From an uncultured Victivallaceae bacterium (GTDB lineage Bacteria > Verrucomicrobiota > Lentisphaeria > Victivallales > GWF2-50-93), in NCBI GenBank assembly GCA_964636325.1, contig CAZWRV010000019.1, forward strand, positions 10,471 through 74,470: a stretch of 64,000 nucleotides of DNA. The letters run 5' to 3'. The notes beneath the pieces were generated by a model, which ran no database searches, was not told the origin of the DNA, and saw only the letters and a program-made list of their open reading frames with translations. This document shows, piece after piece, positions 1 to 18,481 of the stretch. How positions within the stretch are numbered: position 1 is the first letter of the stretch; each line of letters opens with the position of its first letter. The translations under genes and the position numbers were made by a program.

Positions 1-758
1 AATATGCCTCATTCATCGAGATGGCGCAGGACATCGGAGCCTTCTCGGACCAGGAGTCGGAGCTGCTGAAGAACGCTTTTTCGCTGAGGGAGCGCACTGT
101 CGGGAAAATAATGAAGGGCAGGCTGGACCTGACACCCATACACACCGGGATGTCGCCGGACGAGATAGTCCTGACGATACGTCAGAAGTGCCAGCGATAT
201 TATCCGGTCGTGAAAAAGTCGCTCGACGACTCCGAGGGAATCCTTTCCGCGAAGAGCTTCTTCTTCCTGGCGAAGGAGCAAAGGGGCCGGTGGCTGCAGT
301 CGACCTGTGTCATCCCCGCGGTCTACATCCCGGAGAACGCCCCGCTTATCAAGGCGTTCACCACGCTCAGGGCCAAAGAGGTTCCCGCCGCACTCGTCAC
401 GGACGAATACGGCGGGGTGGCAGGCATGATAGACATCACCGACATCTACGACGAGGTGGTCGGTGACGTCGAGGAGGAATACGAGAGCCCCGGCTGGCGC
501 GTCCGCAGGGCGGGCAAGCATTCCTGGAAGGCGGACGGACAAATACCGCTGCTGGATCTCAGTGGAATCATAGGCGTTGGCATCGCCGGGGCCGAGTCAA
601 ACACCCTCAACGGCATATTCCTGGAGAAGCTCGGCCGCATGCCCAGGCCCGGCGACAGGCTGCGGCTCGGCAACCTCGAAATCAGAGCTGTGACCGTCCT
701 CAGGAACCGGGTCGGAGAGGTCGAGCTCAAGCTTATTAACGTCGCAAGGCAGGAATGA
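1..758 (+). CDS. CNNM/CorC (hemolysin TlyC-like) CBS + CorC_HlyC transporter-associated protein, 5'-truncated by window edge
   Basis: CBS-pair motif VTDEYGGVAGMIDITDIYDEVVG and C-terminal NTLNGIFLEKLGRMPRPGD. The frame is open upstream of the Met at 21. Confidence 0.85.
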   Translation, partial: YASFIEMAQDIGAFSDQESELLKNAFSLRERTVGKIMKGRLDLTPIHTGMSPDEIVLTIRQKCQRYYPVVKKSLDDSEGILSAKSFFFLAKEQRGRWLQSTCVIPAVYIPENAPLIKAFTTLRAKEVPAALVTDEYGGVAGMIDITDIYDEVVGDVEEEYESPGWRVRRAGKHSWKADGQIPLLDLSGIIGVGIAGAESNTLNGIFLEKLGRMPRPGDRLRLGNLEIRAVTVLRNRVGEVELKLINVARQE

Positions 759-759
759 A

Positions 760-1758
760 ATGACATACATCCTCCTGACAGTGCTCTTCGTGATGGCCCA
801 GGGCTTCTACAGCGGAATGGAGACCGGCATGGTCTCGCTGCTGAAGCCCAGGGTGCGGCACGGCATCAAGGAGAATGTCCGCGGAGCCAGGATACTCTAC
901 TTCTTCAGCATGCATCCGGGGATAATGATATCCACTACGCTCGTCTTCGTGAACATATGCGTCGTCTGTTCATCCAACACTGCGAAAAGGGCGTTCGAAT
1001 ATTTCGGGCTCTGCGGCCCCGGATGGATGACCGCGCTCACTGTCTTCATGGGGCTCGTCCTCCTTTTCGTTGAGATCATCATGAAGAACTGGTTCCGACA
1101 GCAGCCCTATGAAAGGTGCCTGATGTTCGCATACGTCCTCAACGCCTCATACTACATGCTCTATTTCCCGGTGCGGGCGCTTTCCGCGTTCACCGTGCTG
1201 GTCAACAGGACATTGGGCGGCAGGGGCGGAGGCGATGACGAGAGGGCGCGAGCCATGATGCGGGAGGACTTCTTCATACTTCTGGAGGAGAGCGAACGCA
1301 GCGGCGCGATAGACCCGGAAGCGGCGGACATGCTCAACCGCTCCCTCGACATCCACGGCATCTGCGCCGCAGACGTCATGCTCGGAAGGGACTGCGTCAA
1401 GGATCTGCCGCTCTCGTCCAGCGTTGCCCAGGCCGTGGCATTCTGCAGGGACAACAGGATTTCAAGGGCGCCCGTCCAGGCGGCGGACGCAAAAGTCTCC
1501 CCTGGACAGCCCTGGCAGGGAATATTCAGCGTCTATGACGCCTTCTTCAACATCCCCGAGGAGGAATGGGAATCTGTCAAGGTCACGGAATGCCTCAGGC
1601 CTACCGAAACAATTTCCGCTGACAGCGGCTTCGAAGAGATGCTGGCCAAGTCAAGGGCCGTAAAAAGCCCGCTGCTGGTAGTCACGGACCCCGAGGATCC
1701 GTCAAAACACCTAGGCATAGCCACTCCAATCGAAATAGTCCGGAAGATATTCGGATAG
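760..1758 (+). CDS. CNNM (DUF21) transmembrane + CBS domain protein
   Basis: N-terminal FYSGMETGMVSL DUF21 motif, several hydrophobic helices, then CBS-like repeats. No CorC C-terminal domain. Confidence 0.8.
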   Translation: MTYILLTVLFVMAQGFYSGMETGMVSLLKPRVRHGIKENVRGARILYFFSMHPGIMISTTLVFVNICVVCSSNTAKRAFEYFGLCGPGWMTALTVFMGLVLLFVEIIMKNWFRQQPYERCLMFAYVLNASYYMLYFPVRALSAFTVLVNRTLGGRGGGDDERARAMMREDFFILLEESERSGAIDPEAADMLNRSLDIHGICAADVMLGRDCVKDLPLSSSVAQAVAFCRDNRISRAPVQAADAKVSPGQPWQGIFSVYDAFFNIPEEEWESVKVTECLRPTETISADSGFEEMLAKSRAVKSPLLVVTDPEDPSKHLGIATPIEIVRKIFG

Positions 1759-1761
1759 GGA

Positions 1762-1811
1762 TGGTCGGGATGGAGAGATTCGAACTCTCGACCTTTAGAC
1801 CCCCAGTCTAA
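1762..1811 (-). pseudogene. 3' half of tRNA-Pro(GGG), att-like remnant (not an intact tRNA)
   Basis: Minus strand reads TTAGA-CTGGGGG-TCTAA (anticodon arm), AGGTC, GAGAG-TTCGAAT-CTCTC (T arm), CATCCCG-A-CCA. The required 5' acceptor strand CGGGATG and the D arm are absent upstream. Confidence 0.85.
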
Positions 1812-1906
1812 AAAACACCCCTCTGAGAAGAGCCTTTGAACTCAATCTCATACCACCTTTAACACCCTAAAACTTGCGTCTGTGGTAGCAAATCTGGTAG
1901 CAGATT

Positions 1907-2137
1907 TTAGCACCTGAAGAAGACCGGCCATGACGTCCCGTGCTCGTCGCGCCCCGTCTCTGCCATGCACCAGGCGTTGTATCCGACGGAGCATTCGTCA
2001 ATGAAGAGCCCGTCGGGGATCGAGGAAAGCCTGTAGAAGTGCAGAAGGCACGACAATCCCAGCAGGAGCGCCGCGGCCGCCGCAAATGAAATGCGGGGCC
2101 GCCATTTCCGCGCCAGAATGCCGTTGGATTCCATCAT
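1907..2137 (-). pseudogene. N-terminal fragment of GT-C (ArnT/PMT-like) glycosyltransferase
   Basis: TM helix followed by RLSSIPDGLFIDECSVGYNAWCMAETGRDEHG (GT-C first-loop DE motif), then a stop after 77 codons. Confidence 0.65.
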
Positions 2138-2159
2138 AATGCGAAAGACCTGAGCGGGA

Positions 2160-2200
2160 GTAAACATTCAGTGAAAGGGCGTAGTTCACTGAATATTTAC
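2160..2200. repeat. 41-bp palindromic element (family A), flanked by 8-bp direct repeat GAGCGGGA
   Basis: GTAAACATTCAGTGAA-AGGGCGTAG-TTCACTGAATATTTAC. GAGCGGGA at 2152-2159 and 2201-2208. Confidence 0.85.
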
Positions 2201-2229
2201 GAGCGGGAATTGATGCTGCCTGCCGGACA

Positions 2230-2745
2230 TCACCCCGGTTTCCTCCCCACCGTTATTATGAACGACCTGCGCTTGCGCATGAAGTCCGCGCCGAAGATGG
2301 CCGCGTCAAGGAAATTATACAGCGGCAGCAGAGGACGCAGGAACGAGCTGGCGATGCTCTTGTAGTGCAGGCCGGACAAATATCCTATCTCGACTTCGAA
2401 CCCGCATCCGGAGAACGCCTCCCTGATTTCCTCGGCGCTGACAGGCCGTTCGTTCTTCGTCACCCCCTTCTGGCTGTGCAGCGGCGAGCTGATGTCACGG
2501 TAGAGCCACATGAACGGGTTCCGCCTGTTGGGGTCGAAGGCCACGAATGCCCCGCCAGGACGCAGCACCCTGAACGCCTCTGACGCGCAAAGCCGCTTGT
2601 CGGGGAGATGATGGAGCATGCCGCTGAAAAGGATGTAGTCTACGCTTGAGCCGGCCAGGGGCAGCGCCTCGACATCTCCGTTGACCATGAAGAACTCTAT
2701 CTCGGCCTTTTTGTCCTGATACTGATTATTCAGCTTTGCTTTCAT
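2230..2745 (-). CDS. Class I SAM-dependent methyltransferase (Methyltransf_11-like), apparently lacking its N-terminal motif I
   Basis: GDVEALPLAGSSVDYILFSGMLHHLPD...RVLRPGG motifs. No GxGxG motif, and no room for it before the upstream stop at 2763. Confidence 0.7.
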   Translation of the reverse strand: MKAKLNNQYQDKKAEIEFFMVNGDVEALPLAGSSVDYILFSGMLHHLPDKRLCASEAFRVLRPGGAFVAFDPNRRNPFMWLYRDISSPLHSQKGVTKNERPVSAEEIREAFSGCGFEVEIGYLSGLHYKSIASSFLRPLLPLYNFLDAAIFGADFMRKRRSFIITVGRKPG

Positions 2746-2762
2746 CTGTTTCTGAATGTTTT

Positions 2763-4121
2763 TCAGCCGTGGTCAAAACGGAATATCGATTCGGAAATCA
2801 ACGAAACACCGGTCCTTGCATTTAGCCTAAGCCTATTCCAGGACTTGAGCCTGATGATCTCCTTGAAAATTTTTGACGGCCTCAGGTAGAATCGGCGGTA
2901 TGCCTGCCTCTGGAGATCAAGAAGATCGTCCCTCGACAAGGTTTCAAGCCTGTGCACCGGACCTGTGTGTATGCCATAGTGGGCGTAGTCATGGTCGATT
3001 ATGAGCCCCTTGCTGTCAAGCTGCTCAAAGACGGCGCTTTTGGGGAACGGCTTGAGCACGTGGAACTTGGCGATATCCGGATCAAGCCTTATGGAAAAGT
3101 CGATCGTATCGTTGATCGTCCCCCTGTCCTCGCCCGGAATTCCTATCAGGAAGAAGCCCCATGTCTCGATGCCCAGTTCCTTGGCGATTGCAAACGCCTC
3201 CTCTATCTGCTGAAGCCTAGTCCCCTTCTGGACTATGTCGAGGATCCTCTGGTTTCCCGACTCCACGCCTATGGCGACGCTGTATGTGCCGGAGTCCTTG
3301 AGAGCCTTGAGTATTTCCTTGTTTATGAAGTCCGCCCGGATTCCGTTGGGGAAGGCGAACCTGCACTTGATTTTCCTTGCCAGTATCCCGTCCCTGATCG
3401 CGAAGACCCTGTTCCTGTTCGTGATGAAATTGTCGTCCCGGAAATGTATCTCCCTGGCGCCGTATTCCCTGATTACCAGCTCTATCTCGTCAAGGACGTT
3501 TTCCGCGCTTCTGCAGCGGAACCTTCTTCCGTGCAGGAATTTAGCGGTGCAGAAGCTGCAGTTGCCGGGGCAGCCCCTGCTTGTTATCATCGGCACCGCA
3601 ACAGATTCGATGGCGTCGGGATACGAATATCTGTGTCCCTTGAAAAGATGCCTTGCAGGAAACGGAAGGGAGTCCAAGTCCTCTATCGGAGTGCGCTCCT
3701 GGTTCCGGACTATCCGCCCCCCCTGCCTGGACACAAGCCCCCTTATTTCGGAGAAGTCACCGCCATGCTCGAGGCATTTCGCCAGCTCGCAAATCGTCCA
3801 CTCTCCCTCCCCGACCACCGTGAAGTCTATCGGCCCGCAGGAGGCGCATTCCTCGGGCATGATGCTCGCATGTATGCCTCCGATCACAGTGGCGGCCGAG
3901 CAGCATTCCTTCGCTATCCTGGCTATTCCGACAGCTCCGGGAAAGACCGGCGTCGTTGCTGTCACTCCGACAAGCGCGGGATTCTCGGACTTGAATATCT
4001 CACGAAGGCGCACTTCTCCTATCTGTTCGGCGTCGATATCGATGATCCTCACCGAATGCCCGTCCGTGAGCAAAACATGGGGGGGCTTGTCAAACCCAAG
4101 CTCGGCTCCGAGGAGCGTCAT
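2763..4121 (-). CDS. B12-binding radical SAM protein (class B methylase/BchE-like)
   Basis: ITSRGCPGNCSFC CxxxCxxC motif, N-terminal B12-binding Rossmann segment (VIGGIHAS), GVESGNQ and GFFLIGIPGE motifs. Confidence 0.9.
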   Translation of the reverse strand: MTLLGAELGFDKPPHVLLTDGHSVRIIDIDAEQIGEVRLREIFKSENPALVGVTATTPVFPGAVGIARIAKECCSAATVIGGIHASIMPEECASCGPIDFTVVGEGEWTICELAKCLEHGGDFSEIRGLVSRQGGRIVRNQERTPIEDLDSLPFPARHLFKGHRYSYPDAIESVAVPMITSRGCPGNCSFCTAKFLHGRRFRCRSAENVLDEIELVIREYGAREIHFRDDNFITNRNRVFAIRDGILARKIKCRFAFPNGIRADFINKEILKALKDSGTYSVAIGVESGNQRILDIVQKGTRLQQIEEAFAIAKELGIETWGFFLIGIPGEDRGTINDTIDFSIRLDPDIAKFHVLKPFPKSAVFEQLDSKGLIIDHDYAHYGIHTGPVHRLETLSRDDLLDLQRQAYRRFYLRPSKIFKEIIRLKSWNRLRLNARTGVSLISESIFRFDHG

Positions 4122-4186
4122 CCTCGATGGCCGTTTTGGTGTAAAACGCAGAAACGACCTAAAATAGTCATATATGGAAGGATGGT

Positions 4187-4600
4187 TCAGAACGGCAGCT
4201 TAGAGAGGAAGACCATGATCTTGTGCTCCCAGTGTTCGGGGGCCTTCTGCATCTTGTCTATTTCCGCGTTGATGGCGTCCAGTTCCCCCCTGTCCAGCCA
4301 TAGGCCCTGGCATTTTCTGCAGTGCTCCAGGACTATGTCCGAGAACGAGATGAAATTGACCTTCACCATCTTCGTTCCCTTGCATTTCGGGCAGCATGCG
4401 TCGGAGATGCTGTCTATGTCGGCGGCATCCGTGGAACAGTATTCGATGTCGCCGTCGTGCGGATGGGTTATGGCGTCGAGCTCGCCCTTGTGGAGCCAGA
4501 CCCCGCCGCACTTTCCGCATGTGTCGATCCTGATGCCGTTTATCTCCTGGCATTCAAGCTTCAACCCTTCGCAGCGCGGACATGTCAGTTCGTCAGGCAT
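4187..4600 (-). CDS. Double zf-TFIIB-like zinc-ribbon protein
   Basis: Two repeats: CPRC...CGKCGGVWLHKGELD and CPKC...CRKCQGLWLDRGELD. Confidence 0.85.
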   Translation of the reverse strand: MPDELTCPRCEGLKLECQEINGIRIDTCGKCGGVWLHKGELDAITHPHDGDIEYCSTDAADIDSISDACCPKCKGTKMVKVNFISFSDIVLEHCRKCQGLWLDRGELDAINAEIDKMQKAPEHWEHKIMVFLSKLPF

Positions 4601-4747
4601 CCTCAATTCCCCTTTTCCCAATTCTTCTCAAAAGTTCAGATTTTCGGCGCAGAATTCCGGCGTTGAAACGGCGTCAATCACTCACTTCCGCCCTTTGCCG
4701 GCCCTCACAACGGCAAATCTGAAAGAGAAACCCATGTCGCATGAATT

Positions 4748-6085
4748 TCACGGGTTGATCTTATCATCAAAATAACGCCTGAGGCCGTCTATTGCAACTC
4801 TTTCCTGGGACATAGAATCCCTGTCTCGGACGGTGACGGCCTGGTCGTCCTGCGACTGGAAGTCGTAGGTGACGCAGTATGGCGTGCCGATCTCGTCCTG
4901 GCGGCGATAGCGCTTGCCGATGCTGCCGGTGACGTCGAATTCGGCCCTGAACCGCTTCCGCATGTCCTTATATATGTTCTCTGCAGGCTCGGCAATCTTC
5001 TTCGCCAGCGGCAATATTGCGATCTGCACCGGCGCGACCTTTGCAGGAAACCTGAGGACAATCCTTAGATCCTCGTCCATCCCCTCCTTCTTGGTCTCCG
5101 CCCTGTCCTCGTCGTAGGAGTGGCAGATCAGCGCGAGGACGGTGCGGTCGACTCCGACCGAGGTCTCGACGACGACCGGCACGAGTTTTGAGTTGGTGGC
5201 CTGGTCGAAATATTCGAGGTTCTGCGCGGAGAACTCCTGGTGCCTGGACATGTCCCATGTGCCGCGGTGGTGGATGCCCTCCAGCTCGCCCCATCCGAAC
5301 GGGAAGCGGAACTCTATGTCGAGCGCGGCCTTCGCGTAGTGCGCCAGCGTCTCGTGCTCGTGTATCTTGAGCTCGTCATCCTTGAACTGGAGCAGTTCCC
5401 TGTAGTATTTTATCCGCTCCTCCCTCCAGAACTCGTACCAGCTCATGGACTCCTCGTCCTTGCAGAAGAACTCCATCTCCATCTGGCTGAACTCCCTGGA
5501 GCGGAAGGTGAAGTTGCGCGGGTTGATTTCGTTCCTGAACGCCTTCCCTATCTGGGCTATCCCGAAAGGGAGCGTGCGCCTGGCGGCGATGCGGACGAGA
5601 TGGAAGTCCACGAAGATCGGCTGGCAGGTCTCCGCCCTGAGGTAGGCGACGTGCTCCTCGTCGAAGACCGGGCCGACGAAGGTCTTCATCATCAGGTTGA
5701 ATTCGCGCGGCGGCGTCAGGTTCTTCGAGCCGCAGTTGGAGCACTTAGTCTGATCCTCCATCTGGTCCACGCGGAAGCGCGCCTTGCAGTCGCGGCAGTC
5801 CGTCATCATGTCGCCGAACTTGTCAAGATGCCCCGACGCCTTCCACACCATCGGATGGCATATTATCGTCGAGTCGAGGCCTTCGACGTTGTCCCTCGCC
5901 TCGACCATGTTGTGCCACCAGAGCTGTTCGACCGCCCGCTTGAGCGCCGTGCCGTAGGGGCCGTAGTCCCAGAAGCCGTTGATGCCGCCGTATATCTCCG
6001 AGCTCTGGAATATGAAGCCGCGCCGCTTGCACAGCGACACTATCTTGTCCATAAGTTCCGGATTCTTGCCGTCTTCTGTAGCCAT
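4748..6085 (-). CDS. glyQS: Glycine--tRNA ligase (alpha2 type)
   Basis: LCKRRGFIFQSSEIYGG, YLRAETCQ, GKAFRNEI, FRSREFSQMEMEFF, GSIGKRYRRQDEIGTP. Confidence 0.97.
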   Translation of the reverse strand: MATEDGKNPELMDKIVSLCKRRGFIFQSSEIYGGINGFWDYGPYGTALKRAVEQLWWHNMVEARDNVEGLDSTIICHPMVWKASGHLDKFGDMMTDCRDCKARFRVDQMEDQTKCSNCGSKNLTPPREFNLMMKTFVGPVFDEEHVAYLRAETCQPIFVDFHLVRIAARRTLPFGIAQIGKAFRNEINPRNFTFRSREFSQMEMEFFCKDEESMSWYEFWREERIKYYRELLQFKDDELKIHEHETLAHYAKAALDIEFRFPFGWGELEGIHHRGTWDMSRHQEFSAQNLEYFDQATNSKLVPVVVETSVGVDRTVLALICHSYDEDRAETKKEGMDEDLRIVLRFPAKVAPVQIAILPLAKKIAEPAENIYKDMRKRFRAEFDVTGSIGKRYRRQDEIGTPYCVTYDFQSQDDQAVTVRDRDSMSQERVAIDGLRRYFDDKINP

Positions 6086-6534
6086 GCCGTCAGTTCCTCC
6101 GCGTGATCATGCAAATTCAAACTTCCTGAATAAGCCTTGCCGTGAAATACCGACTCCCAGAAGGTATTTCAGATTCAGATTTCCGGCTCACCTCGCTAAA
6201 AAGCAGCAAGGGCATTATCCATGGACTGCAAACATTTCATAGGAGTGGTCCGGAAAATCTGAAATTCAAGCTGCGGAACTTACAAGCGCCCAATGCGTTT
6301 TGCAAGATATGCTCCTTTAGTCGGAACGAAAAAATCCAATCCCAAATCTTGCTCGTCAAAATGTAAATTTTCACGCTAAAGGAGTATAAATATGCGCGGG
6401 CAACGTCATGCCGGCAGTCTCGGCAAATATTAATTTAACCCATCAAATCACCGCTTTTTCAGCGGCCGCTTGTAAAAAGGCCTGTTTGCAGTATTCTATA
6501 TAGCACGATAGAAAATATTATAGTGGGAATGATT

Positions 6535-6792
6535 ATGAATGTACTTTCCGCAAATGAAATCAAAACACGCGGGGTTTCCGCGCTCCAATCCATCGAAGAC
6601 GATGGCGGAGAAGCCATGATAACTGTCAGAGGCAGGGAAAAATACGTCATCATGACCGTCGAGCAATACAACCATCTGCGCGAATGCGAGATTGAGGCCG
6701 CACTGATGGAAGCGAAAAAGGACATCGAAGACGGGAATGTGATCATTGAAAGTGTGTCGAAGCATCTGAAGAGAATCAGGAATGGCTTATAA
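6535..6792 (+). CDS. Type II antitoxin, Phd/YefM-like
   Basis: 86 aa with ANEIKTRGV...MITVRGREKYVIM pattern. Overlaps the downstream toxin start. Confidence 0.75.
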   Translation: MNVLSANEIKTRGVSALQSIEDDGGEAMITVRGREKYVIMTVEQYNHLRECEIEAALMEAKKDIEDGNVIIESVSKHLKRIRNGL

Positions 6793-7057
6793 GATCATCT
6801 ATACGGCAAGCTATCTGAGAAGAGCTGCGAAATTCGCGCATAAACACCCTGAACTGCTCATGCAGTATCAGAAGACGCTCGAGCTGCTCGAAGCTGATCC
6901 GCAGCATCCATCCTTGAGGCTTCACAAGCTAAAGGGCAAACTTGACGGCCTTTATTCCGTTTCTATAAACATCAGTTCCCGCATAACTCTAATAATGATA
7001 ATACAAGAATCTTCCATTATCCCAGTCGACATAGGCAAACATGAAGAGGTTTATTAA
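6782..7057 (+). CDS. Type II toxin, RelE/YafQ-like mRNA interferase
   Basis: 91 aa with DPQHPSLRLHKLKGKLDGLYSVSIN...IGKHEEVY, a typical RelE/ParE superfamily pattern. Confidence 0.8.
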   Translation: MAYKIIYTASYLRRAAKFAHKHPELLMQYQKTLELLEADPQHPSLRLHKLKGKLDGLYSVSINISSRITLIMIIQESSIIPVDIGKHEEVY

Positions 7058-7065
7058 TCCAAAAA

Positions 7066-7539
7066 GTGCAAAATAAAGACAAAAATATTTCCGAGCTGGC
7101 GAAGAACAAGAAGGCGTTCCACGACTTCAGCATACTTGACACGCTGGAGGCGGGCATCGAGCTGAAGGGCACCGAGGTCAAGAGCTGCCGGGCGAAGAAC
7201 ATCACCATGAGCGACTCGCACGTGAAGATCCACGGCAGCGAGGCCTTCCTATACAACGTCCATATCGCTCCCTACGAATGCGGCAACATACACAACCATC
7301 CGCCGCTGCGGACGCGCCGGCTCCTGCTGCACAGGCGCGAGATACGCAAGCTCACGCAGGCCCTGCGGGAGAAGGGCTGCACCATCATCCCGCTCAAGTT
7401 CTACCTGAAGGACGGCCGTGTCAAGGTGGAGATCGCGGTCGCAAAAGGGAAGACTCACGGCGACAAGCGCGAGACCCTCAGGCGACGCCAGCACGACCTA
7501 GAAACTAGGAAAGCCGTGTCGTCCGCAAGGAGAAGATAG
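7066..7539 (+). CDS. smpB: SsrA-binding protein SmpB
   Basis: NKKAFHDFSILDTLEAGIELKGTEVKS, RRLLLHRREI, GKTHGDKRE. Confidence 0.97.
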   Translation: MQNKDKNISELAKNKKAFHDFSILDTLEAGIELKGTEVKSCRAKNITMSDSHVKIHGSEAFLYNVHIAPYECGNIHNHPPLRTRRLLLHRREIRKLTQALREKGCTIIPLKFYLKDGRVKVEIAVAKGKTHGDKRETLRRRQHDLETRKAVSSARRR

Positions 7540-7592
7540 CCACAAGAAGCACAAAATATTTCATCGCCAGGCGCAAAGATGAGACTTCGTTT

Positions 7593-9290
7593 TCATAAGC
7601 CACTTTGCCGTGAAAGCCTTTTTTCGACCTTTGCGATGTCGTCGAGAAGTTTTTTGAGGATTTGACGGTCTTCGTCCTTGTCTTCCATCATTATTTCCGC
7701 GGCTTTGGCGTGCATTACAGAGAGCCCCCAGAGATTGAGGCGGGTCTGTTCGTCGGCGCCGGAAGCCTTGGCCTCGGCGGCCGCCAGCGAATAGCATGCG
7801 GCAAGGTTCTTGTGCGCGGGCCAGTTTTCCGGTTCGACTTCGAGCGTCTTGAGCAATACGGGGCGTGCGTCCCTGTGCCTGCCCGCATCAATATAGACGG
7901 CGCCGAGGGTGTTTAGAACCCTCGGCTTGCGTGGGCTTTTCGCGGCGCAGTCCTCCCACAAGGAGATTTCATCCTTCCAAACCATGTTCCGTGAAAATGT
8001 GGCGGACACTAGCGTGGCGACATACGCGGCGAAGACGCATGCGGCGGAGCGACCGGCTCCGGCTCCGCGAAATCCGCATCTTCGCCATGCCAGCAGGACC
8101 ACGGCGGCGACAGCCATTATTATGCCGGGCGACGGGAGGTAAACTCTGTGCTCGAAGACCAGATCGGCGATAGGGACAAGACCCGACTCCGCCGATATTG
8201 TCGCGAAAAACCATAGGATGCCGAAAGCCGCAAGCCTGAGCTTCGGATCCCACCGCCCCCGAGATGTCCTTTGCCATGCGAAAAGGGCCGCGAGGATCAA
8301 GAAGGCCACAACAATCAGCGAGAAGATTACCGCCGGGTCGAGCAGTTCGTTCCTTGCCGGAAAATCATGTTCAAGGTTCTGGCCGTAAGGTAGAATCAGC
8401 AGCCTGAAGTAGAAAATTATTGCGGTCAGCCCGGTCAGGAAGTAGTCAGTCCTGGACATGTCAGTCAGGACTTTACCCCCGGCGAAGTCTCCGGGCACCC
8501 CGCTGCCGATCATGCCGATGCTCAGCGGAAGGAGGACGAGAAGGAGGTAGAACGGCACCAGAAGGAGCAGACGCCTGCCAAGCTTCCCCTCAAAGAAGAA
8601 CAGCTCCACAAGTGTGACCGCGAGCGGGATCGTATATGTGTTCTCCTTTGTCTTGACCGCAAGGAGCGCGCAGAGAAGCGAGCCCGCATACAGTCCTGCG
8701 GTTCTCAGTGAAATACCTTGTCCGCCCGGATCGGCCGCCATTCTTGCTTTGATATAAAGCATGCACGCCGACAGATAGAACATCGCCGCCAGCGATGCGA
8801 ATCGCTGGACTATGTATGTGACCGCCTGCGTCTGGACGGGATGGATCATGAATATGAGCGACGCGGCGAAAGCGATGATTCCTGCATCAGAGTCCTGACG
8901 CGGCGCACCGTTTTCCGCGGAATCCGCAGCGCCGGGAGGCATCCTGAGCATGGCCGGACACCTGAATAGTCCCATGACGAGGAAGTAGACTAGGATGGAA
9001 TTCACAAGATGGACGGCGAAGTTGAAGGCATGGAAGCCGGTTGTTGCTAAGCCGCCCAGCCACACATTGAATGCGAAGGAAAGGAAGCCGACAGGCCTGA
9101 GTCTCAGCTCCTGGGCAATATCCGGCGCAGGAGCCGAGTCGGGGAACAATATCATCCATGGATCAAGCATCGCCGGATTGCAGACGATATTGCGGAAGTC
9201 GTCGAAATGAAACGAGGCGAAGAACGAGTTGGAATATGCAAGCGCTCCCGCGACGGATATCACCGCAATGTGCGCGTATGAATTCAGCAA
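7593..9290 (-). CDS. TMTC-like multi-TM GT-C glycosyltransferase with C-terminal TPRs
   Basis: FHFDD, RPV, HPVQTQAVTYIVQR, KENT, FEHRVYLPS and RNMVWKDEISLWED motifs, plus a TPR-like tail. Confidence 0.8.
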   Translation of the reverse strand: MLNSYAHIAVISVAGALAYSNSFFASFHFDDFRNIVCNPAMLDPWMILFPDSAPAPDIAQELRLRPVGFLSFAFNVWLGGLATTGFHAFNFAVHLVNSILVYFLVMGLFRCPAMLRMPPGAADSAENGAPRQDSDAGIIAFAASLIFMIHPVQTQAVTYIVQRFASLAAMFYLSACMLYIKARMAADPGGQGISLRTAGLYAGSLLCALLAVKTKENTYTIPLAVTLVELFFFEGKLGRRLLLLVPFYLLLVLLPLSIGMIGSGVPGDFAGGKVLTDMSRTDYFLTGLTAIIFYFRLLILPYGQNLEHDFPARNELLDPAVIFSLIVVAFLILAALFAWQRTSRGRWDPKLRLAAFGILWFFATISAESGLVPIADLVFEHRVYLPSPGIIMAVAAVVLLAWRRCGFRGAGAGRSAACVFAAYVATLVSATFSRNMVWKDEISLWEDCAAKSPRKPRVLNTLGAVYIDAGRHRDARPVLLKTLEVEPENWPAHKNLAACYSLAAAEAKASGADEQTRLNLWGLSVMHAKAAEIMMEDKDEDRQILKKLLDDIAKVEKRLSRQSGL

Positions 9291-9364
9291 ACTTCCAAAC
9301 CTTGTAGCTCGATTCGGTTATACTCGCATGAATTCAGCAAACTATGCCCTTTTGCTGGTTCATG
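9276..9364. repeat. Family A hairpin variant: half arm (9276-9293) plus near-complete copy (9326-9364)
   Basis: GTATGAATTCAGCAAACT, then 32 bp, then GCATGAATTCAGCAAA-CTATGCCCT-TTTGCTGGTTCATG. Confidence 0.75.
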
Positions 9365-9402
9365 ATGTCCCGGCCAAATCTGGAATTCCAACAAATAGCC
9401 TG

Positions 9403-10800
9403 TCATTCTGAGGCAGGCGGCGCGCTACTGGACGGAGTGAATATGCCAACCCGTTTCAACGTACCATCGGAGCCATATTGCGCAGTGGCAAAGCCGTTGC
9501 CTGAACGCCCGGTGAGATAAATATATCCGTTGGGGCTGACTGCGATGTCAACGGGGAAACCGGGGATTGGATCGCTTCCCTGTCCAAGAGGGATATAGTT
9601 TCCATCGGGGGTATATTTGAGAGTGGTGAACTCGTTGCCGGACGATCCTGTGACATAGATGTTTCCGGAGCTATCCACGGCAATAGCGGAAGCCTGGGAA
9701 TAAGCACCGCCTGATTCAGGATATCTTCTTGTCCACTGCTGCCCCCCTTGGGAACCATATTTTGTCAAGATGTAATTGCTGCCGTTTTCCGTCCCTGCCA
9801 CATAAAGGTTGCCGGAAGCGTCCACGACGACCCCGACAGCATTTCCGGAAGACCCGATATCCAGTTTTTGAACCCACGCCTGCTTGCCGTCCTCTTTTTT
9901 CACGGAGGAGTAAGCGTACATGATGGTCTGGAGTGTTGTGTTGCCCCCGCCTTCCGGATAATAGTTACCTGTGACATAGGCATTCCCTGAGATGTCAACC
10001 GCTATTCCGGCTGGAATGTTGAAGCCGCTGTATTGATCCGTCGAGCCGTTGTAGCGCCTAGCCCAGTGCTGCTTTCCCTTGGTGTCGTATTTCACAGTGG
10101 CGAAGTCATAGCCTTGGACGCTAGAGCCTTTCGGAGGAACTGACTGCGAATCACCCGCCACATAAATGAATCCTGCGCTATCACATATGATACATGTCGG
10201 CCTGTTGCTCTTCTGCTTGCTCTTCGAGGGGCCGGCATATCTCTTCTTCCACTTCTGTTTTCCAGAGGAGTCATATTTGAGTGTGGTGAAGTCGTATTCA
10301 TAAGTTCCCTTCTTCTCGTTTTCCTTGACGCATGTGTCCCCGGTCACGTAAACATTTCCACTTTCACCCACTACTATTCCCGTGGGCCAGTCGGAACTTT
10401 TCGCAGGTCCGTTGTATTGCTTTTTCCACTTCTCGATGCCTACGGAATCATACTTGACGATCTGGAAGTCGGTGTCGTAGTCCTTCTTGGGATTATTCCC
10501 CTTCACGGGCGCCGTGACATACACATCCCCGGTCGTGGTATCTACGGCCATCGAAGCGTTGCCGTATGAAAGCCCGCTGTTCATATAGTTGACCCACGCC
10601 TGTTGGCCGCTGGTATCATATTTCAACGTGGCATAATCAACAGTTCCTCCGCTATTTGTGTAACTTGCCGTCACATAGGCGTTCCCCGACGAATCATAGG
10701 AGATAAGGGCAGGCTTGTCTTCCGCAAGAACTGCGAAGTTCGCGGCAAACCCGATTGAAGCGGCGGCACCGACTAAGAACTTGAATCCATGCATCTTCAT
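9403..10800 (-). CDS. Secreted SBBP-repeat beta-propeller protein
   Basis: Signal peptide and about 7 repeats of (I/V)AVD-S-GN(A/V/I)YVTG...(F)xTxKYDxxG. Confidence 0.85.
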   Translation of the reverse strand: MKMHGFKFLVGAAASIGFAANFAVLAEDKPALISYDSSGNAYVTASYTNSGGTVDYATLKYDTSGQQAWVNYMNSGLSYGNASMAVDTTTGDVYVTAPVKGNNPKKDYDTDFQIVKYDSVGIEKWKKQYNGPAKSSDWPTGIVVGESGNVYVTGDTCVKENEKKGTYEYDFTTLKYDSSGKQKWKKRYAGPSKSKQKSNRPTCIICDSAGFIYVAGDSQSVPPKGSSVQGYDFATVKYDTKGKQHWARRYNGSTDQYSGFNIPAGIAVDISGNAYVTGNYYPEGGGNTTLQTIMYAYSSVKKEDGKQAWVQKLDIGSSGNAVGVVVDASGNLYVAGTENGSNYILTKYGSQGGQQWTRRYPESGGAYSQASAIAVDSSGNIYVTGSSGNEFTTLKYTPDGNYIPLGQGSDPIPGFPVDIAVSPNGYIYLTGRSGNGFATAQYGSDGTLKRVGIFTPSSSAPPASE

Positions 10801-10962
10801 CAAGCTATCCTTTCTAATATTTTGTTTCTTATTTTAACACGGATTTACGGTTTTCACATTAAAAAAGGGCTTTCAGGATAATAAAAACGCGTGATAATCG
10901 TTATTATTACCGTTGAAAATGCTTTTTTCAAGCTTATGATGCGGGAAAGATTGTCATTTTAA

Positions 10963-13900
10963 ATGGGGAGAGTCATCGTGTTGAGGGCGAAATTTTCAGC
11001 TGTGATGGTGCTGTTCCTGCTGTTTTTCGGGCTCATGTGCGGGCTTAAGGCATATGACATACCACTTGATGCGGGCTGGAACCTGATTTCTCTGCCTGTC
11101 CAGCCCTTGGAATGCGATATTTCGGGCCAGACAGCATCCATCGCCGGGAAATTCACCAAGTTACTGGCCCGAGAGGGCGGTTCCTGGAAGATATACGATC
11201 CTGCGAATGCCTCTCTTAGCGATAAGCTGGCGCTTGAGCCGGGCAAAGGCTACTGGATCAGCATGAGCTCCGCAGGCACTCTTTCGCTGACGGATTCGGG
11301 GCTTGCGCCGTCGAAGCTGGTTAAGCTGGGAGCGGGCTGGAACCTGGTCGGCTGCACGCTTTCGGAGGCTGCGGCGGTTTCGCAGGCGCTGCAGTCCATA
11401 TCGGGCAAATATGAGAAGGTTGCGGAATATTCCGGCGGAACCTGGAAATATTATCCCGGCACTTTGTCGCAGCTCACTCCGGGCAGGGGTTACTGGATAA
11501 AGGCCGTCGAGCCCTGCCTTCTGAACTTCGGCGCCGGGCAGACGAACGCGGCCTCATCCTCGGACGGCGGCACGGTGGAATTTCCTGATCTCGGCTCGCT
11601 TTCCGGGCTGGGGGCGTCATTCTCCAAGATCAGCGATGCGGACGGGCAGCTCTCGGACATCGTGCGAGACCTTTCAGGCCGCTACAGGCTGCAGCTCGAC
11701 ACCTCCTCGCTTGAAAGCCTCGATGAGGATCTGATTTTTTCGATACCCTTGGACGAATCGTTCTTCGACCCCTCCATCCCGCCTGAAAGCATCGCGTCCT
11801 ACCTTCTGCCGATGTTCTACGACGAGTCTGCCGGGGAGTGGAAAGCTTTCGGAGACATGGTGACATATGATCCAGCAAGCAAGACGGCGCTGGTCCAGGC
11901 CAACCTTTCCAAGCTCGCCGCGGCCACTGCCGCATCGGATAACGTGAAAGGCGGCCGCGGCGATACTCCGGGCACCGTGAACACCATCATCAAGATAGGC
12001 GGATTCACAATCCAGTCCATAACCACCAACCACGAATATACTGCGACCAAGGACGGCTCCGTCTTCACCATCCACTACTATATCGGCTCGGACAAGTATG
12101 AAATTCCCACCAATCCTGAGTGGGAGGATCTTGGTTCAGGGATATACGATCAGACTTCAGGAGTCCCATACTATGTCCAAGACCTCTTCAAGGCTCTCGA
12201 CGCGGCCTACGAGAACCTCATGCTGGACGAGGGTCTTAACGGCAAGGTCTTCAGCAAGCTCACGAACAAGAAGGTCTGCATATCGAACTACGGAGACGGT
12301 GTCGATGGCTGCACGAACTTCGCCGGCGGCGACATAAAGATTTCCAACACGCTCGAAAACTGGGCCTCCATGAAGTCCACTGCATGCCACGAGCTGGTTC
12401 ACTGCCTACAGAGCCAGAAATACGGCGCGTGGGGCATCGGCACCGGGCAATACAACAAATGGTTCATCGAGGCGGTCGCCAACTACTACTGCGCCAGATA
12501 CTGCAGCTTGACCGACGAGGATAGGAAAAACTACATTTATGCGGGCAACACCAGGAGCTACGTCGACGGGAAATGGTCCAACGACGCCCCGCTCTTCGAA
12601 TACATGCTCTGGCCCGTCAACTCCAACAAGATGCGGAGCTACTATTCGGCGTCGCACTTCCTCGTATGGCTCTCCGAAACATACAGCCCCAAGCTCATAG
12701 GCACGGCGCTCGAAAGGAAATGGTTCGACGACACCACCAACCTCGGCGAGGCCATCAGGCAGTGGAACGAGGAGCATTCGCTGCTCTCCGCCTACTGGGC
12801 ATACTGCGGGGACATCGTGAAGAAGCCCGACTACTGCGCCCAGACGAACAACTACATAAAGGACAGAATGTATGACCAGGCCTCGAACAGCGAGCTAAGG
12901 AAAATAGCCCAGTTCGTGTTCCCCGCAAAGCCGGATCTCGCGTGGAACCGCTTCGCCGACGGCAAGGATCCCATAACGTACGCCAAGCTAACTAAATCCA
13001 TGGAGAACTATTCCTCGGCCTATGTCTATTTCAGGGCCGGCAACGCAAGCAACGCCCTCCTTGTCTTCGACTCCTCCGCCACAACGAACCCAGGGTTCTA
13101 CAAGACATACACCTACGATTTCATAGGCAAGACCGACGCAAGCTACTCCGGGAAGAGCCCCCTCGAAGACGCGGGCGCGCTCTTCTTCGGCGGGCAGAAA
13201 CCATACACCATAAAGAATTTCGGCAAGAGCGGCGACGTCAAGGAAGTCGAGCAGTGGATTTCCGTCGGAAACAGTTCGTCCTCGCTCAACATGGCCTACT
13301 ACATCCTCCTTCCGCCAGTCGTAACCAAGACCGAGGCGGGAAAGGTCACGTGGAGCACCAAGGAGGTCGGTCAGATCCCAGCTTCGCTGATAGACGGCTA
13401 CCAGATATACCGCAATGGCGTCAAGCTCAATTCCTACTCCGTCCCCTACGCCGCGGGCGAGCAGAGCTTCTCCGACAGCAGGATACTGGCCAACGACCCC
13501 GACGTCACCGTCCACATTAAGGACGTCTACGGCAATGTATGGCCGGTGCCCGACATCCTCTTGAACCTCCAGAAGACTAAGATTGTCCTGCTCGAACTCT
13601 GGAACGGCGTGACGCCCATGACGGTCAACGCAGAACAGTACGGCTCCAGCGAAACCCTCACGTTCACCGGCTATTTCGTGGACTACTGCAACTTCGACGT
13701 CTGGGGGGAACATCCGCAGTACGGCGACGTCACATGGAGCGGGAACCAGTTCAGCTATTCTTTCAAAGGCGATTCAGCAACGGACGGCGACACTCCCATA
13801 ATCAGGACCACCACCTATAGCGGCGGCTACTATCACCGCTACGACATGAACATCTCAGGCACGGTCGACGACTCGGGCAACATTGTCTCCGCCACGTTCA

Positions 13901-14190
13901 ATCTGAACGCCGACAGGTATTATCCCGATTTCTCCGCCACACCGAACATCTACCATGTCGAGTTCAATCTGAGCAACATATACCTTGACAGCATAAGCGA
14001 GGACAACTACTCGGTGACGCATTATTACTACATCACAAAGGCCGAGGCGCCTTACAAGGTCACGGGACTCAAGGCGCAATGGGGGGATCCGTATCCCTTC
14101 GGCAACGCCGCATACACGCTCATATCCTCGGACTGGGCGAACGCGACAAACAATATTGTCGGCATCATCTGGCTGAAACAAAGGAAGTAG
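10963..14190 (+). CDS. Large secreted protein with putative zinc-metallopeptidase domain (HExxH...E)
   Basis: Signal peptide, two GWNL(I/V)(S/G) repeats, CHELVH (12388-12402) followed by WFIEAVANY, and an Fn3-like IDGYQIYRNGVKL segment. Confidence 0.65.
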   Translation: MGRVIVLRAKFSAVMVLFLLFFGLMCGLKAYDIPLDAGWNLISLPVQPLECDISGQTASIAGKFTKLLAREGGSWKIYDPANASLSDKLALEPGKGYWISMSSAGTLSLTDSGLAPSKLVKLGAGWNLVGCTLSEAAAVSQALQSISGKYEKVAEYSGGTWKYYPGTLSQLTPGRGYWIKAVEPCLLNFGAGQTNAASSSDGGTVEFPDLGSLSGLGASFSKISDADGQLSDIVRDLSGRYRLQLDTSSLESLDEDLIFSIPLDESFFDPSIPPESIASYLLPMFYDESAGEWKAFGDMVTYDPASKTALVQANLSKLAAATAASDNVKGGRGDTPGTVNTIIKIGGFTIQSITTNHEYTATKDGSVFTIHYYIGSDKYEIPTNPEWEDLGSGIYDQTSGVPYYVQDLFKALDAAYENLMLDEGLNGKVFSKLTNKKVCISNYGDGVDGCTNFAGGDIKISNTLENWASMKSTACHELVHCLQSQKYGAWGIGTGQYNKWFIEAVANYYCARYCSLTDEDRKNYIYAGNTRSYVDGKWSNDAPLFEYMLWPVNSNKMRSYYSASHFLVWLSETYSPKLIGTALERKWFDDTTNLGEAIRQWNEEHSLLSAYWAYCGDIVKKPDYCAQTNNYIKDRMYDQASNSELRKIAQFVFPAKPDLAWNRFADGKDPITYAKLTKSMENYSSAYVYFRAGNASNALLVFDSSATTNPGFYKTYTYDFIGKTDASYSGKSPLEDAGALFFGGQKPYTIKNFGKSGDVKEVEQWISVGNSSSSLNMAYYILLPPVVTKTEAGKVTWSTKEVGQIPASLIDGYQIYRNGVKLNSYSVPYAAGEQSFSDSRILANDPDVTVHIKDVYGNVWPVPDILLNLQKTKIVLLELWNGVTPMTVNAEQYGSSETLTFTGYFVDYCNFDVWGEHPQYGDVTWSGNQFSYSFKGDSATDGDTPIIRTTTYSGGYYHRYDMNISGTVDDSGNIVSATFNLNADRYYPDFSATPNIYHVEFNLSNIYLDSISEDNYSVTHYYYITKAEAPYKVTGLKAQWGDPYPFGNAAYTLISSDWANATNNIVGIIWLKQRK

Positions 14191-14199
14191 GGGGCAGCA

Positions 14200-16491
14200 A
14201 TGAAATCATCCTGCAATGCAGCTAATAAAGTTTCGAAGAATATTCTGATCCTGCTGTGCCTGCAGGCTCTCGCGCTTCAGACGCCGCTTCTCGCCGTCCC
14301 GCCGCCTCCCATGAGGATCGGCGGAACCGTCACGGCCGACGGTACGCAGCTCGCCGGCATCGAGGGCAAGACGCTGGAAATCCGCGTCAAAGGCCCTTCC
14401 GGGACAGCATACTACGATGCGGCCGGCCTGAAGGCGGAAGACACCAACGGGCTCAACCAGTCCGGACTCTACATGATTGACATTCCGATGTTCGAGACTG
14501 CGGATCAGCCCGGCGGCGCAAATGAGGGCGACCAAGCTGAGATCTCCGTCATATACGGCGGCATACAGCTCGACATCAGTTCGCCGGCCGGCGGCGCTCT
14601 CTCGATCGGAGCCGGGGGCGAAGTGCGGACAGTCAACATCACCGCCTCGTCGCCGGCATCCTCCGGATCGCTGAGAGTTGAGATAACACCCGCCGACGCG
14701 ATCCAGGCGGGGGCGATGTGGCGCGCAGACGCCGGAGAATGGCTCCGCAGCGGCCAGGTCGCATCGGGTCTTTCGGCGGGAACGCACACCGTCGAGTTCA
14801 AGGATATCGCGCTTTTGACTACGCCCGCCTCCCAGTCGGTCAATGTAGTCGCCAACCAGATCGCCTCCGCAACCGGCGCCTACACTAACAACTCCAGCTA
14901 TTTCGTCACTGTCGGAGTCTCCCCCCTGTTCTCCGGGAGGACTGTTCCCGCCGCTGGAACGGCCAAGCTTGTCGCATCCGGCGCGACACTCCCAATCTCC
15001 GCTGAACCCGAGGGAGGCTACGTCTTCATCAGGTGGGGGGCTTCTCCGGAGTCTGCTGCTTCATTCACCGACGCGTTCAAGGCGTCCACTGGCGCGAAGA
15101 TCACGGGCGCCGCCGCAGTCACCGCCTACTTCAGCCTTACCGAAACAATCTATCTGGCGCCGGGCTCGGCGATGAAAGTCGAAGCGTCAAGGCTTGGCCT
15201 GGAGGAATTTGCAAAGATGCCCAAGGTCGCAGCCGGCTACAAGGAGCCAGTCAAGGGCAAGGCCGTAAAGGCAACGTTCAAAAACTACGGCAAGGCTCCC
15301 ATAGGCGCATTCATCGCCGAATGGACCAAGGCCGCGGCGATCTACGATAAGGCCGAATACAAGGGCGTCCAGCTGGGCCCGGCGCTTGAAGGCGACCCGA
15401 TTAAAAGTCGCAAGCTCGACTCGGTAAATGCCGAAGGCAAGGCTTTCAAGGACGGGAAGCAGAGCCTCAACATGAACGCCTATCTTGTCGCACCGCAGAT
15501 CGAAAGCGCAGTCCTCACGGAAAATATCCTCCGCATCGAGGGAATGTATTTCGGCTCGAAACTGCCGAAGATCCTCGTGGAAGTCGAAAAGGACGGCAAA
15601 TACAAGTATCTGGCGTGCAAGATCGACAAGGGCGAGTCGCTCAAGTTCCAGAACGCCCAGGGCAAGGAGCTTGCAAGCTGCATGAAGGTTCTGGAAACCG
15701 ACACAGAGGACGGCGAGATAGGATTCAGCCGGATCGTGGCCGCATACCCCGCGATCCCGAAAGGCGCGGCGGCCACAGGCTACCTCATACTAGACAACAA
15801 GGCGGCCATGGCGGCGAAACAGATTCAGGAAGGTGCGGCCGAGGGCTCAGGCTCTTCCTCTGCGTCCACCGCCATGCAGCCCGCTTCTAAGAAGCCTATC
15901 TTGAAAAGTGCCGTTCCGCCCTCATGCGCCAGCGGCACCCAGGGGCTTGTCAGAAATGCCCGCCTTGTCTCAAACCGCATTTTCATTGCGGGACAGGGAG
16001 AACCGCGGACAAAGCTCTATGAAGTCCTCGAAATCGCCCTCGCCCTGCCAAAGGGTTTCAACCCCGCCTCCAAGGAAGGCTCCGATATCCGGCTCAAGCT
16101 CGGAACCGGCTACGAGATCGGACTCAACTTCGCAGACGCCTCAAAGCTTGAATTCGACGTCCCCGGAATGCCCGAAAAAGGCGGTTCTGCGAAGTTCGCA
16201 GCCCCGGGGACTTCAGCCGAATTCAAGTGGAATGGAAAAGGCCGCGCGTCCCTGAGAATCTGCCTGGACAAGGAATCGCCCGGGGAAGACGTCAATCTTC
16301 AAGGATTCCTCGGGGAAAATGACTTCTACGACAACCTTGAAGTTCCCGCCAGAATATCCGTCGGAAACACCTGTGAAATGTTCGGCCTCGCATGCAGGGG
16401 GGCCGAACAAGCCCCGGCAACTGAAGGCGCAAGAACCGTCCGCCGGATCTTCACCGGCGAACAGTTCGACGGGAAACAGCTCCAACCCTGA
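14200..16491 (+). CDS. Secreted multi-domain beta-rich surface protein (PEGA-like and InlB B-repeat-like segments)
   Basis: Signal peptide, GAMWRADAGEW...GLSAGTHTVEFK segment and AEPEGGYVFIRW repeat-like segment. Confidence 0.55.
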   Translation: MKSSCNAANKVSKNILILLCLQALALQTPLLAVPPPPMRIGGTVTADGTQLAGIEGKTLEIRVKGPSGTAYYDAAGLKAEDTNGLNQSGLYMIDIPMFETADQPGGANEGDQAEISVIYGGIQLDISSPAGGALSIGAGGEVRTVNITASSPASSGSLRVEITPADAIQAGAMWRADAGEWLRSGQVASGLSAGTHTVEFKDIALLTTPASQSVNVVANQIASATGAYTNNSSYFVTVGVSPLFSGRTVPAAGTAKLVASGATLPISAEPEGGYVFIRWGASPESAASFTDAFKASTGAKITGAAAVTAYFSLTETIYLAPGSAMKVEASRLGLEEFAKMPKVAAGYKEPVKGKAVKATFKNYGKAPIGAFIAEWTKAAAIYDKAEYKGVQLGPALEGDPIKSRKLDSVNAEGKAFKDGKQSLNMNAYLVAPQIESAVLTENILRIEGMYFGSKLPKILVEVEKDGKYKYLACKIDKGESLKFQNAQGKELASCMKVLETDTEDGEIGFSRIVAAYPAIPKGAAATGYLILDNKAAMAAKQIQEGAAEGSGSSSASTAMQPASKKPILKSAVPPSCASGTQGLVRNARLVSNRIFIAGQGEPRTKLYEVLEIALALPKGFNPASKEGSDIRLKLGTGYEIGLNFADASKLEFDVPGMPEKGGSAKFAAPGTSAEFKWNGKGRASLRICLDKESPGEDVNLQGFLGENDFYDNLEVPARISVGNTCEMFGLACRGAEQAPATEGARTVRRIFTGEQFDGKQLQP

Positions 16492-16533
16492 TCCGTGGAA
16501 AATAAAGATTCGTTCATTAAGCGGGAATTAGCA

Positions 16534-18450: not shown

Positions 18451-18481
18451 CGTAGTGGTATGTAGTGATTTATGGAGATCT

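Follow-up and report, generated by a model that had tools for sequence, protein, structure and literature searches.

The question raised by this locus is what is represented by four 41-bp hairpins that lie between the genes of a 64,000-nt stretch of DNA (the window; forward-strand positions 10,471 to 74,470 of contig CAZWRV010000019.1, assembly GCA_964636325.1) from an uncultured Victivallaceae bacterium. A first-pass annotation, made from the letters of the sequence, had offered three options: a repetitive extragenic palindrome (REP) of the kind handled by REP-associated tyrosine transposases (RAYTs), an RNA hairpin bound by a protein, and an ultra-short miniature inverted-repeat transposable element (MITE). 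As described below, the hairpins are an undescribed family of a known kind of repeat, the REPs, and not a one-off regulatory signal. It is rather probable in our judgement that this lineage-specific, REP-like, non-autonomous palindromic repeat is copied as a single-stranded DNA (ssDNA) hairpin by a trans-acting enzyme of the HUH/Y1 (RAYT-like) type.

Each of the four hairpins is composed of a 16-bp stem and a 9-nt loop. Copy 1 (2160–2200, − strand) is of stem type 1 and reads GTAAATATTCAGTGAA / TTCACTGAATGTTTAC around the loop CTACGCCCT on the − strand, corresponding to GTAAACATTCAGTGAA-AGGGCGTAG-TTCACTGAATATTTAC on the + strand; its stem contains a single mismatch at pair 6 (T.G on the − strand, C.A on the + strand), and it is scored by the covariance model with 59.9 bits on the − strand versus 38.5 bits on the + strand. 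Copy 3 (16534–16574, + strand) is a perfect type 2 hairpin (GTATGAATTCAGCAAA-CGACGCCCT-TTTGCTGAATTCATAC; 60.5 versus 45.5 bits), copy 4 (19616–19656, + strand) is a perfect type 1 hairpin (GTAAATATTCAGTGAA-CTACGACCT-TTCACTGAATATTTAC), and copy 2 (9326–9366, + strand) is a degenerate type 2 hairpin with a decayed 3′ arm (GCATGAATTCAGCAAA-CTATGCCCT-TTTGCTGGTTCATGAT; 39.2 bits). All four had been located by the first-pass annotation, the end of copy 2 being placed here at 9366, and its statement that the two stem types differ at five of 16 positions, with each type complementary to its own arm, was confirmed. Its list lacked a solo 5′ arm of stem type 2 (GTATGAATTCAGCAAA; 9276–9291, + strand), which stands 50 nt ahead of copy 2 without a partner arm and resembles a remnant of decay or of partial duplication. 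The core ATTCAGYRAA occurs eight times in the window (0.55 expected; eight reached in none of 100 shuffles). Folding of copies 1–4 as ssDNA gave −11.3, −8.7, −15.6 and −13.4 kcal/mol, respectively, with z-scores of −7.5, −3.2, −7.9 and −6.8. No further copies were found in the 64 kb, either by fuzzy arm search or with covariance model R1. The four hairpins and the solo arm are confined to positions 1–20000 of the window, and positions 20001–64000 contain none despite many intergenic gaps of more than 100 nt; the cumulative GC skew of the window has its minimum at about 16–24 kb.

The copy number was read from the word depth of Logan contigs in two hot-spring metagenome runs carrying the proteins of the window. 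Contigs of unique sequence have a depth of about 10.8–15.9 in both source runs. Over 2160–2200 the depth rises to 3,615 (versus 11.3) in one run and to 5,390 in the other, with edges at exactly 2160 and 2200, and over 16534–16574 it rises to 4,566 (versus 10.8), with edges at exactly 16534 and 16574; the baseline is regained about 2–6 nt beyond the palindrome ends. The depth jumps and drops at the ends of the palindrome, so that the repeated unit coincides exactly with these 41 bp. The ratio of repeat to unique depth for type 1 agrees between the samples (320 and 339), and each stem type is represented in this genome by roughly 10² copies or more; the case of only a few copies genome-wide, which the first-pass annotation had named as fatal to its proposal, is clearly not what was found. 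For each stem type, 44–48 contigs continue from the hairpin into unrelated flanks (flank consensus agreement 0.39–0.5). Long contigs at the genome's own depth carry one hairpin copy each, and Logan contigs terminate inside copy 4. A further 14 kb or so of the source genome, obtained from paralogue look-ups, contained no hairpin copy.

The distribution of the family was determined by scanning one genome per species (185,579 species) with the pattern GTA-N3-ATTCAG-N2-AA-N9-TT-N2-CTGAAT-N3-TAC. The 33 loci returned all belong to eight metagenome-assembled genomes (MAGs) labelled Victivallales, Victivallis, Victivallaceae, Lentisphaera or Lentisphaerales; about 0.07 chance matches would be expected by our own arithmetic. 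CAZGJP, DYRX and JBAQUG are the MAGs rich in hairpins. Many of these matches are located at contig ends, as expected for a repeat that breaks assemblies. A scan of JGI metagenomes with the window-type stem pattern yielded one locus (L036), and the pattern scans of viral contigs and plasmids yielded none; a phage or plasmid origin was therefore rejected. The radical-SAM protein of the window, encoded near copy 1, has its best homologues (63–67% identical) in proteins named Victivallales or Lentisphaeria, and a DUF1559/pseudopilin-type gene of the window is consistent with the same phylum. At the loci of the radical-SAM relatives no hairpin was found in 61 kb, synteny being lost beyond the radical-SAM gene, and the family is therefore patchy within the phylum. 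Copies are more alike within genomes (0.93) than between genomes (0.84), and loop and stem signatures are genome-specific (e.g., loops ending in CCCT in the window and in TCG elsewhere), which argues for copying rather than convergence. Searches of the full-text literature returned no description of REP-type repeats in Lentisphaerota.

When the matches in these genomes were oriented by their loops, an "A" hairpin emerged with the sequence GTACGTATTCAGTAAA-CTACGTTCG-TTTACTGAATCCGTAC. A related "B" hairpin comes 30–45 nt after it in five MAGs. The best score for B is obtained on the opposite strand, with the sequence GTAAATATTCACTGAA-CTAYGTTCG-TTCAGTGAATCTTTAC, and the two hairpins therefore form inverted doublets. 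Type 2 of the window is A-like, and type 1 is B-like in its outer stem, with the position-12 pair flipped. Joints between contigs of the source genome likewise connect a type 2 hairpin to an inverted type 1 hairpin across spacers of about 1–28 nt, and one type 2/type 1 doublet recurs in a related strain that was sampled in another study; the four copies of the window are all singlets. An associated module is an unstructured 70-nt high-copy repeat (6320–6389, + strand; depth about 4800 versus 11), which is present once in the window, apart from the hairpins, and directly abuts the type 2 hairpin in other contigs of the source genome (joints 6388–6390 to 16533–16538). A third repeat module (6139–6216) has about 20 times the genome depth, and contig joints connect it both with the 70-nt repeat and with type 1 hairpins. 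With the hairpins joined to these two modules, the arrangement is a mosaic like the bacterial interspersed mosaic elements (BIMEs) of E. coli. The 70-nt repeat itself ends in AAGGAG-N7-ATG, like a ribosome-binding site and start codon, and folds as DNA no better than its shuffles (z-scores −0.4 and −1.0).

Larger arrangements were observed in some relatives. In the MAGs JBAQUG and JBAYFV (loci L002, L011, L024, L031 and others) the A/B doublet lies within a composite element of about 336 bp bounded by 34-nt terminal inverted repeats (GGGYCCGCTAAAAAATAACTTGGG...), shortened versions of which occur at other loci. In the Lentisphaeria MAG GCA_030672255.1 (L042, positions 586–839 and 1541–1685) the two hairpin arms are split by about 90–100 nt of other palindromic repeats, belonging to the families GTCATTCC... 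and GTCATTGCGA..., and one arm pair is nested inside another. This last locus suggests that the hairpin loops are insertion targets for other small repeats.

Covariation was evaluated with 43 distinct sequences, i.e., the A-type copies, the B-type copies found by the model and the window copies. The stem (16 bp, A/T-rich) starts with GTA and ends with TAC. Paired stem cells amount to 93.8%, as compared with 84.3% in column shuffles (observed value reached in 0 of 500), and pairing collapses to 23–42% when the registers are slid by one to three columns. Six pairs (4:38, 5:37, 6:36, 12:30, 13:29 and 14:28) are changed on both sides. The covariation proposed in the first-pass annotation is thereby upheld for a repeat family constrained to complementary arms, and so is the conservation of the loop, which follows the asymmetric consensus C-T-A-C/T-G-n-T/C-C-G/T across genomes. 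One strand is favoured by the covariance model by 14–22 bits, so that loop and asymmetry define an orientation. At stem pair 6, 20 of the 43 distinct sequences have a T.C mismatch. Wobble mismatches of the G.T type are about as frequent on the loop-forward strand (10) as on the other strand (12), and thus do not hint at selection acting on one particular RNA strand.

Taken together, near-identical, sharp-edged 41-mers with unrelated flanks, the lack of target-site duplication and of coupling to gene orientation (both detailed below), inverted doublets and mosaics, and genome-specific variants point to a REP-type element copied at the DNA level. The REP half of the REP/RAYT option in the first-pass annotation thus fits best, on the strength of copy number, exact unit, unrelated flanks, doublets, absence of orientation bias and restriction to one lineage; the RAYT half is unproven. 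The mobilising enzyme is pure inference, and the family is accordingly filed as working like a REP or a REPIN (a REP doublet forming a hairpin), not as a demonstrated RAYT substrate. The mechanism that we propose is as follows: The non-autonomous hairpin element would be copied at the DNA level when one strand becomes single-stranded, for example on the lagging-strand template, and folds. A trans-acting, structure-specific HUH/Y1 nuclease of the RAYT or IS200/IS605 type would then cut and rejoin the hairpin, using the loop and the irregularity at stem pair 6 to distinguish the two strands, and insertion would proceed without target-site duplication. As only foldable copies would continue to be propagated, single mutations in one arm would be either eliminated or offset by a second change, and the covariation seen here and the variants typical of each genome would result. 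The Y1 HUH enzymes TnpA(REP)/RAYT and those of IS608 and ISDra2 bind folded single strands and discriminate between strands by loop bases and stem mismatches (PMC8266576), and this mode of strand recognition accords with the recurrent T.C pair and with the conservation and asymmetry of the loop seen here.

Several points weigh against this reading. The copy number is an assembler word depth in a metagenome, to which close relatives living in these samples may contribute. The A-type sequences were gathered with a pattern that forces pairing at its constant positions, and unbiased evidence of covariation is confined to the free positions (4–6 and 13–14) and to the model-found B-type copies. A phmmer search with E. 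coli RayT (query sequence taken from NC_000913) against six-frame translations of the window and of 36 loci (about 0.27–0.29 Mb) gave no match at E<10 to a RAYT/Y1 transposase, and Pfam assigned no transposase domain to the small open reading frames (ORFs) of the window. The unpaired 5′ GT[AG]G tag is missing: The invariant GTA pairs with TAC, the fourth stem base is C, A or T and never G in all 43 distinct sequences, and there is no conserved flank beyond the palindrome. A stem of 16 bp and a loop of 9 nt compare with 6–13 bp and mostly 2–4 nt in described families (PMC3733652). Finally, neither an empty site nor a presence/absence polymorphism was seen, the contigs of related strains (runs X3 and X4) being too short and shallow to span the sites; no 41-nt skips were found in these contigs, which span no hairpin site, and for the protein of 763 aa encoded next to copy 3 there is no close homologue with which to make an empty-site comparison. 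As no empty site was observed, mobility itself is deduced from copy number and flank diversity.

An alternative close to this reading, and one that we hold to be unlikely, is that the hairpins, devoid of a GTAG foot, are the substrate of a non-RAYT system. A lineage-specific ssDNA nuclease or recombinase would in this case read the paired 16-bp stem through the 9-nt loop and the T.C mismatch at pair 6; it would be common to Victivallales and would diversify together with the hairpin variants, and the family would represent a third REP superfamily next to the GTAG and CGTC ones, with an enzyme of its own.

The flanks of the hairpins bear on a further alternative, an ultra-short MITE of an insertion sequence (IS) of the DDE type, in which the 16-bp arms are terminal inverted repeats (TIRs), the 9 nt are the remnant of the interior, and insertion produces a target-site duplication (TSD). 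As the first-pass annotation had noted, copy 1 stands between exact 8-bp direct repeats of GAGCGGGA (left copy 2152–2159, right copy 2201–2208), both of which are at baseline depth and hence lie outside the repeated unit. The octamer is not over-represented in the window (nine occurrences versus 5.1 expected). Direct repeats flanking the hairpins measure only 0–3 nt at 57 of 58 sites, 8 bp being reached at copy 1 only; the TSD suggested earlier is a single-site oddity and was rejected as a feature of the family, and with it the ultra-short MITE in its classical form (TIRs plus TSD) fails. The lack of TSDs at the other 57 sites is as expected for insertion of the HUH type rather than of the DDE type. 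The arms at L042 that enclose about 90–100 nt of other sequence resemble TIRs around cargo, and the JBAQUG doublet is found inside an element of about 336 bp with 34-nt TIRs; the sequence within the split arms, however, consists of other palindromic repeat families and is better read as insertions into the loop. Neither the conserved, asymmetric 9-nt interior nor the retained T.C mismatch would be expected of TIRs that are read as double-stranded DNA, and no transposase gene between or beside the arms and no full-length element were present in any examined locus. A DDE-type origin is therefore improbable. As a separate observation, the right copy of GAGCGGGA extends to the 10-mer AGCGGGAATT (2202–2211), which occurs exactly twice in the 64 kb (2202–2211 and 16520–16529). 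Each of these lies within 1–4 nt of a hairpin (copy 1 and copy 3, respectively), the arrangement with respect to the loop being reversed between the two, and both are outside the repeated unit as judged from depth; we have no explanation for this hairpin-adjacent pairing.

The position of the hairpins relative to genes could, on the other hand, indicate a selected RNA element, such as a U-tract-independent terminator or a 3′ hairpin stabilising mRNA, that is kept locus by locus by selection on the transcript. The four window copies are all intergenic and lie 30–81 nt downstream of a stop codon. The stop codon of a small methyltransferase gene (2230–2745, − strand) precedes copy 1 by about 30 nt, and copy 2 lies between the − strand genes 9403–10803 (beta-propeller protein; 36 nt past the stop) and 7593–9290. 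Copy 3 is situated between the convergent genes 14200–16491 (+) and 16636–17388 (−), 42 and 61 nt from their stops, and copy 4 follows the stop of a GntR-family gene (18482–19534) at a distance of 81 nt and precedes the start of a GH123-like gene (19726–23235) by 69 nt. The position between long ORFs is shared by all four window copies and essentially all of the 58 sites in relatives. According to rough ORF calls, the 25 sites with both neighbours callable comprise 17 tandem and four convergent arrangements, i.e., 21 in keeping with a role at the 3′ end, but also four divergent ones, which place hairpins in promoter regions. The hairpins are stable, and REPs elsewhere in bacteria are known for effects of this sort (PMC3733652). 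Their orientation relative to transcription in tandem contexts is nevertheless mixed (10 same, seven opposite), neither strand is enriched in G.U-compatible mismatches (10 versus 12), and the recurrent T.C mismatch is not compatible with RNA. These orientation and wobble counts also disfavour the protein-bound RNA hairpin considered in the first-pass annotation. A search of RNA runs for the sequence gave no match. The near-identity of sharp-edged 41-mers at about 10² or more loci speaks for common descent by copying and not for convergent selection, so that an origin of the family as an RNA element is quite improbable.

An intrinsic (Rho-independent) terminator was likewise rejected as the primary role. 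The hairpins have a G+C content of 0.32–0.41 inside a window of 54–62% GC and a loop of 9 nt, no U-tract or T-run follows any window copy, and none of the terminator-like calls in the window coincides with a hairpin copy; the combination of a GC-rich stem, a short loop and a U-tract is thus missing, and the earlier remark that this is not a plain terminator was borne out. No match of the hairpins to Rfam 15 was obtained at the gathering threshold or at E≤1, and clustering of ORFs near the hairpins gave no recurrent ORF family beside them in the examined loci. An RNA role is best seen as a possible secondary effect and not as the origin of the family: As the copies lie 30–80 nt past stop codons, the hairpins are probably co-transcribed and may act as putative mRNA-stabilising 3′ hairpins or weak terminators.

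It is very improbable that the palindrome is a double-stranded DNA site (a 16-9-16 operator or a nucleoid-structuring site) for a dimeric protein, with two paralogous proteins for the two stem types, since the symmetric half-sites at a fixed 9-bp spacing, the two discrete types in one genome and the binding of IHF and gyrase by E. coli BIMEs (PMC3333891) are outweighed by hundreds of identical sites with no tie to particular gene classes, by six independently covarying pairs and many intermediates that favour intra-strand pairing over a switch between two specificities, by a conserved asymmetric centre that symmetric dimer binding leaves unexplained, and by an assembly-breaking sequence identity that points to copying.

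Some further features of the window were recorded. A 60-nt minihelix resembling tRNA and transfer-messenger RNA (tmRNA) lies at 1762–1821 (− strand); it has an acceptor stem, a T-arm and ACCA, was scored with 31.6 bits by the Rfam tRNA model and with 20.4 bits by the Rfam tmRNA model, lacks the mRNA-like domain completely and was not called by ARAGORN. It could be a displaced ssrA 3′ end, that is, an integration scar, and Logan contigs break within it, at 1782–1789. The minihelix is located just beyond an 86-codon ORF (1907–2167) that adjoins copy 1 and has no Pfam match; its candidacy as a truncated GT39/PMT-type gene was confirmed neither by Pfam nor by BLASTP against the PMT_2-type proteins of the neighbours. 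A perfect 14-bp palindrome (GTAAAAATATTTCG-CCC-CGAAATATTTTTAC; 23620–23650) is contained in the 5′ coding part of a pseudopilin-like gene (23577–24137) with an N-terminal methylation motif; it starts with GTAAA and ends with TTTAC like the hairpin family, yet is not matched by the covariance model. A gene pair for a PhdYeFM-like antitoxin and a YafQ-like toxin (weak Pfam matches; 6535–7057) is situated just upstream of smpB (7066–7539).

These repeats fragment metagenome assemblies of the lineage, and knowledge of the family aids assembly, binning and annotation of Lentisphaerota. With its perfect long stem, conserved loop and recurrent mismatch but no GTAG, the family lends itself to studying the recognition and spread of REPs beyond the Proteobacteria, including the question of whether the enzyme responsible is RAYT-like or of another kind. 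The genome-specific hairpin variants could serve as markers of strains or lineages.

Classical bacterial MITEs such as Correia/NEMIS, ERIC and RUP are 100–160 bp or longer, have TIRs that match those of DDE-type ISs and generate regular TSDs. The family described here shares with them the small size, the non-coding and intergenic character, the terminal inverted symmetry and the high copy number, and differs from them in its unit of 41 bp and in a flanking duplication at just one of 58 sites. Recognition of folded ssDNA through unpaired or mismatched bases and insertion without duplication, as proposed here, are also features of the subterminal hairpins of IS200/IS605 and of their miniature derivatives, the palindrome-associated transposable elements (PATEs). 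Unlike in these, there is a single symmetric hairpin; neither paired left and right ends nor a guide or cleavage tetranucleotide was recognised, and tnpA and tnpB were not identified in the window or the related loci. Measured against what defines PATEs, the two hairpin types do form doublets, but these are inverted rather than direct, and no conserved cleavage tetranucleotide flanks them.

The resemblance to REPs is closer. In the broad sense of the term, the short high-copy unit, the extragenic position and the complementary stem substitutions are those of REPs. The REPINs of Pseudomonas fluorescens (PMC3116915, PMC3337134) similarly form genome-specific sequence populations that are seemingly inherited vertically, and the inverted A/B and type 2/type 1 doublets match REPINs and BIMEs (PMC3116915, PMC3333891); unlike in P. 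fluorescens, the window copies are all singlets, and each unit on its own is already a long perfect hairpin. The GTAG- and CGTC-tagged REP superfamilies, which include the PVC (Planctomycetes–Verrucomicrobia–Chlamydiae) members Opitutus terrae and Rhodopirellula baltica (Di Nocera et al. 2013, PMC3733652), are modular stem-loops as well, with complementary stem substitutions that define subfamilies, dimers 20–100 bp apart and a location mostly between unidirectional or convergent ORFs. They are defined by an unpaired terminal tag, whereas none is present here, the depth being at baseline right at the palindrome ends. Hairpins associated with Y1 enzymes need not carry GTAG, however, as is documented by the class 3 TnpA-Y1 genes of Planctomycetes and Acidobacteria with their high-copy "CnGA-foot" structures (PMC6006769).

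The enterobacterial REP/BIME and RAYT system (PMC3333891, PMC3479197, PMC8266576) differs in several respects: In the present family GTA is paired and no GTAG tag exists, the 16-bp stem is A/T-rich and not GC-rich and bulged, and the 9-nt loop is the best-conserved non-stem part across genomes; moreover, a RAYT gene was not detected in the window or the 36 loci, nor was it possible to define a CT cleavage dinucleotide. Common to both are short extragenic palindromes in hundreds of copies without TSD, several stem types per genome, inverted pairs with short linkers, mixed motifs, and stem irregularities and loop bases that potentially serve strand-specific recognition.

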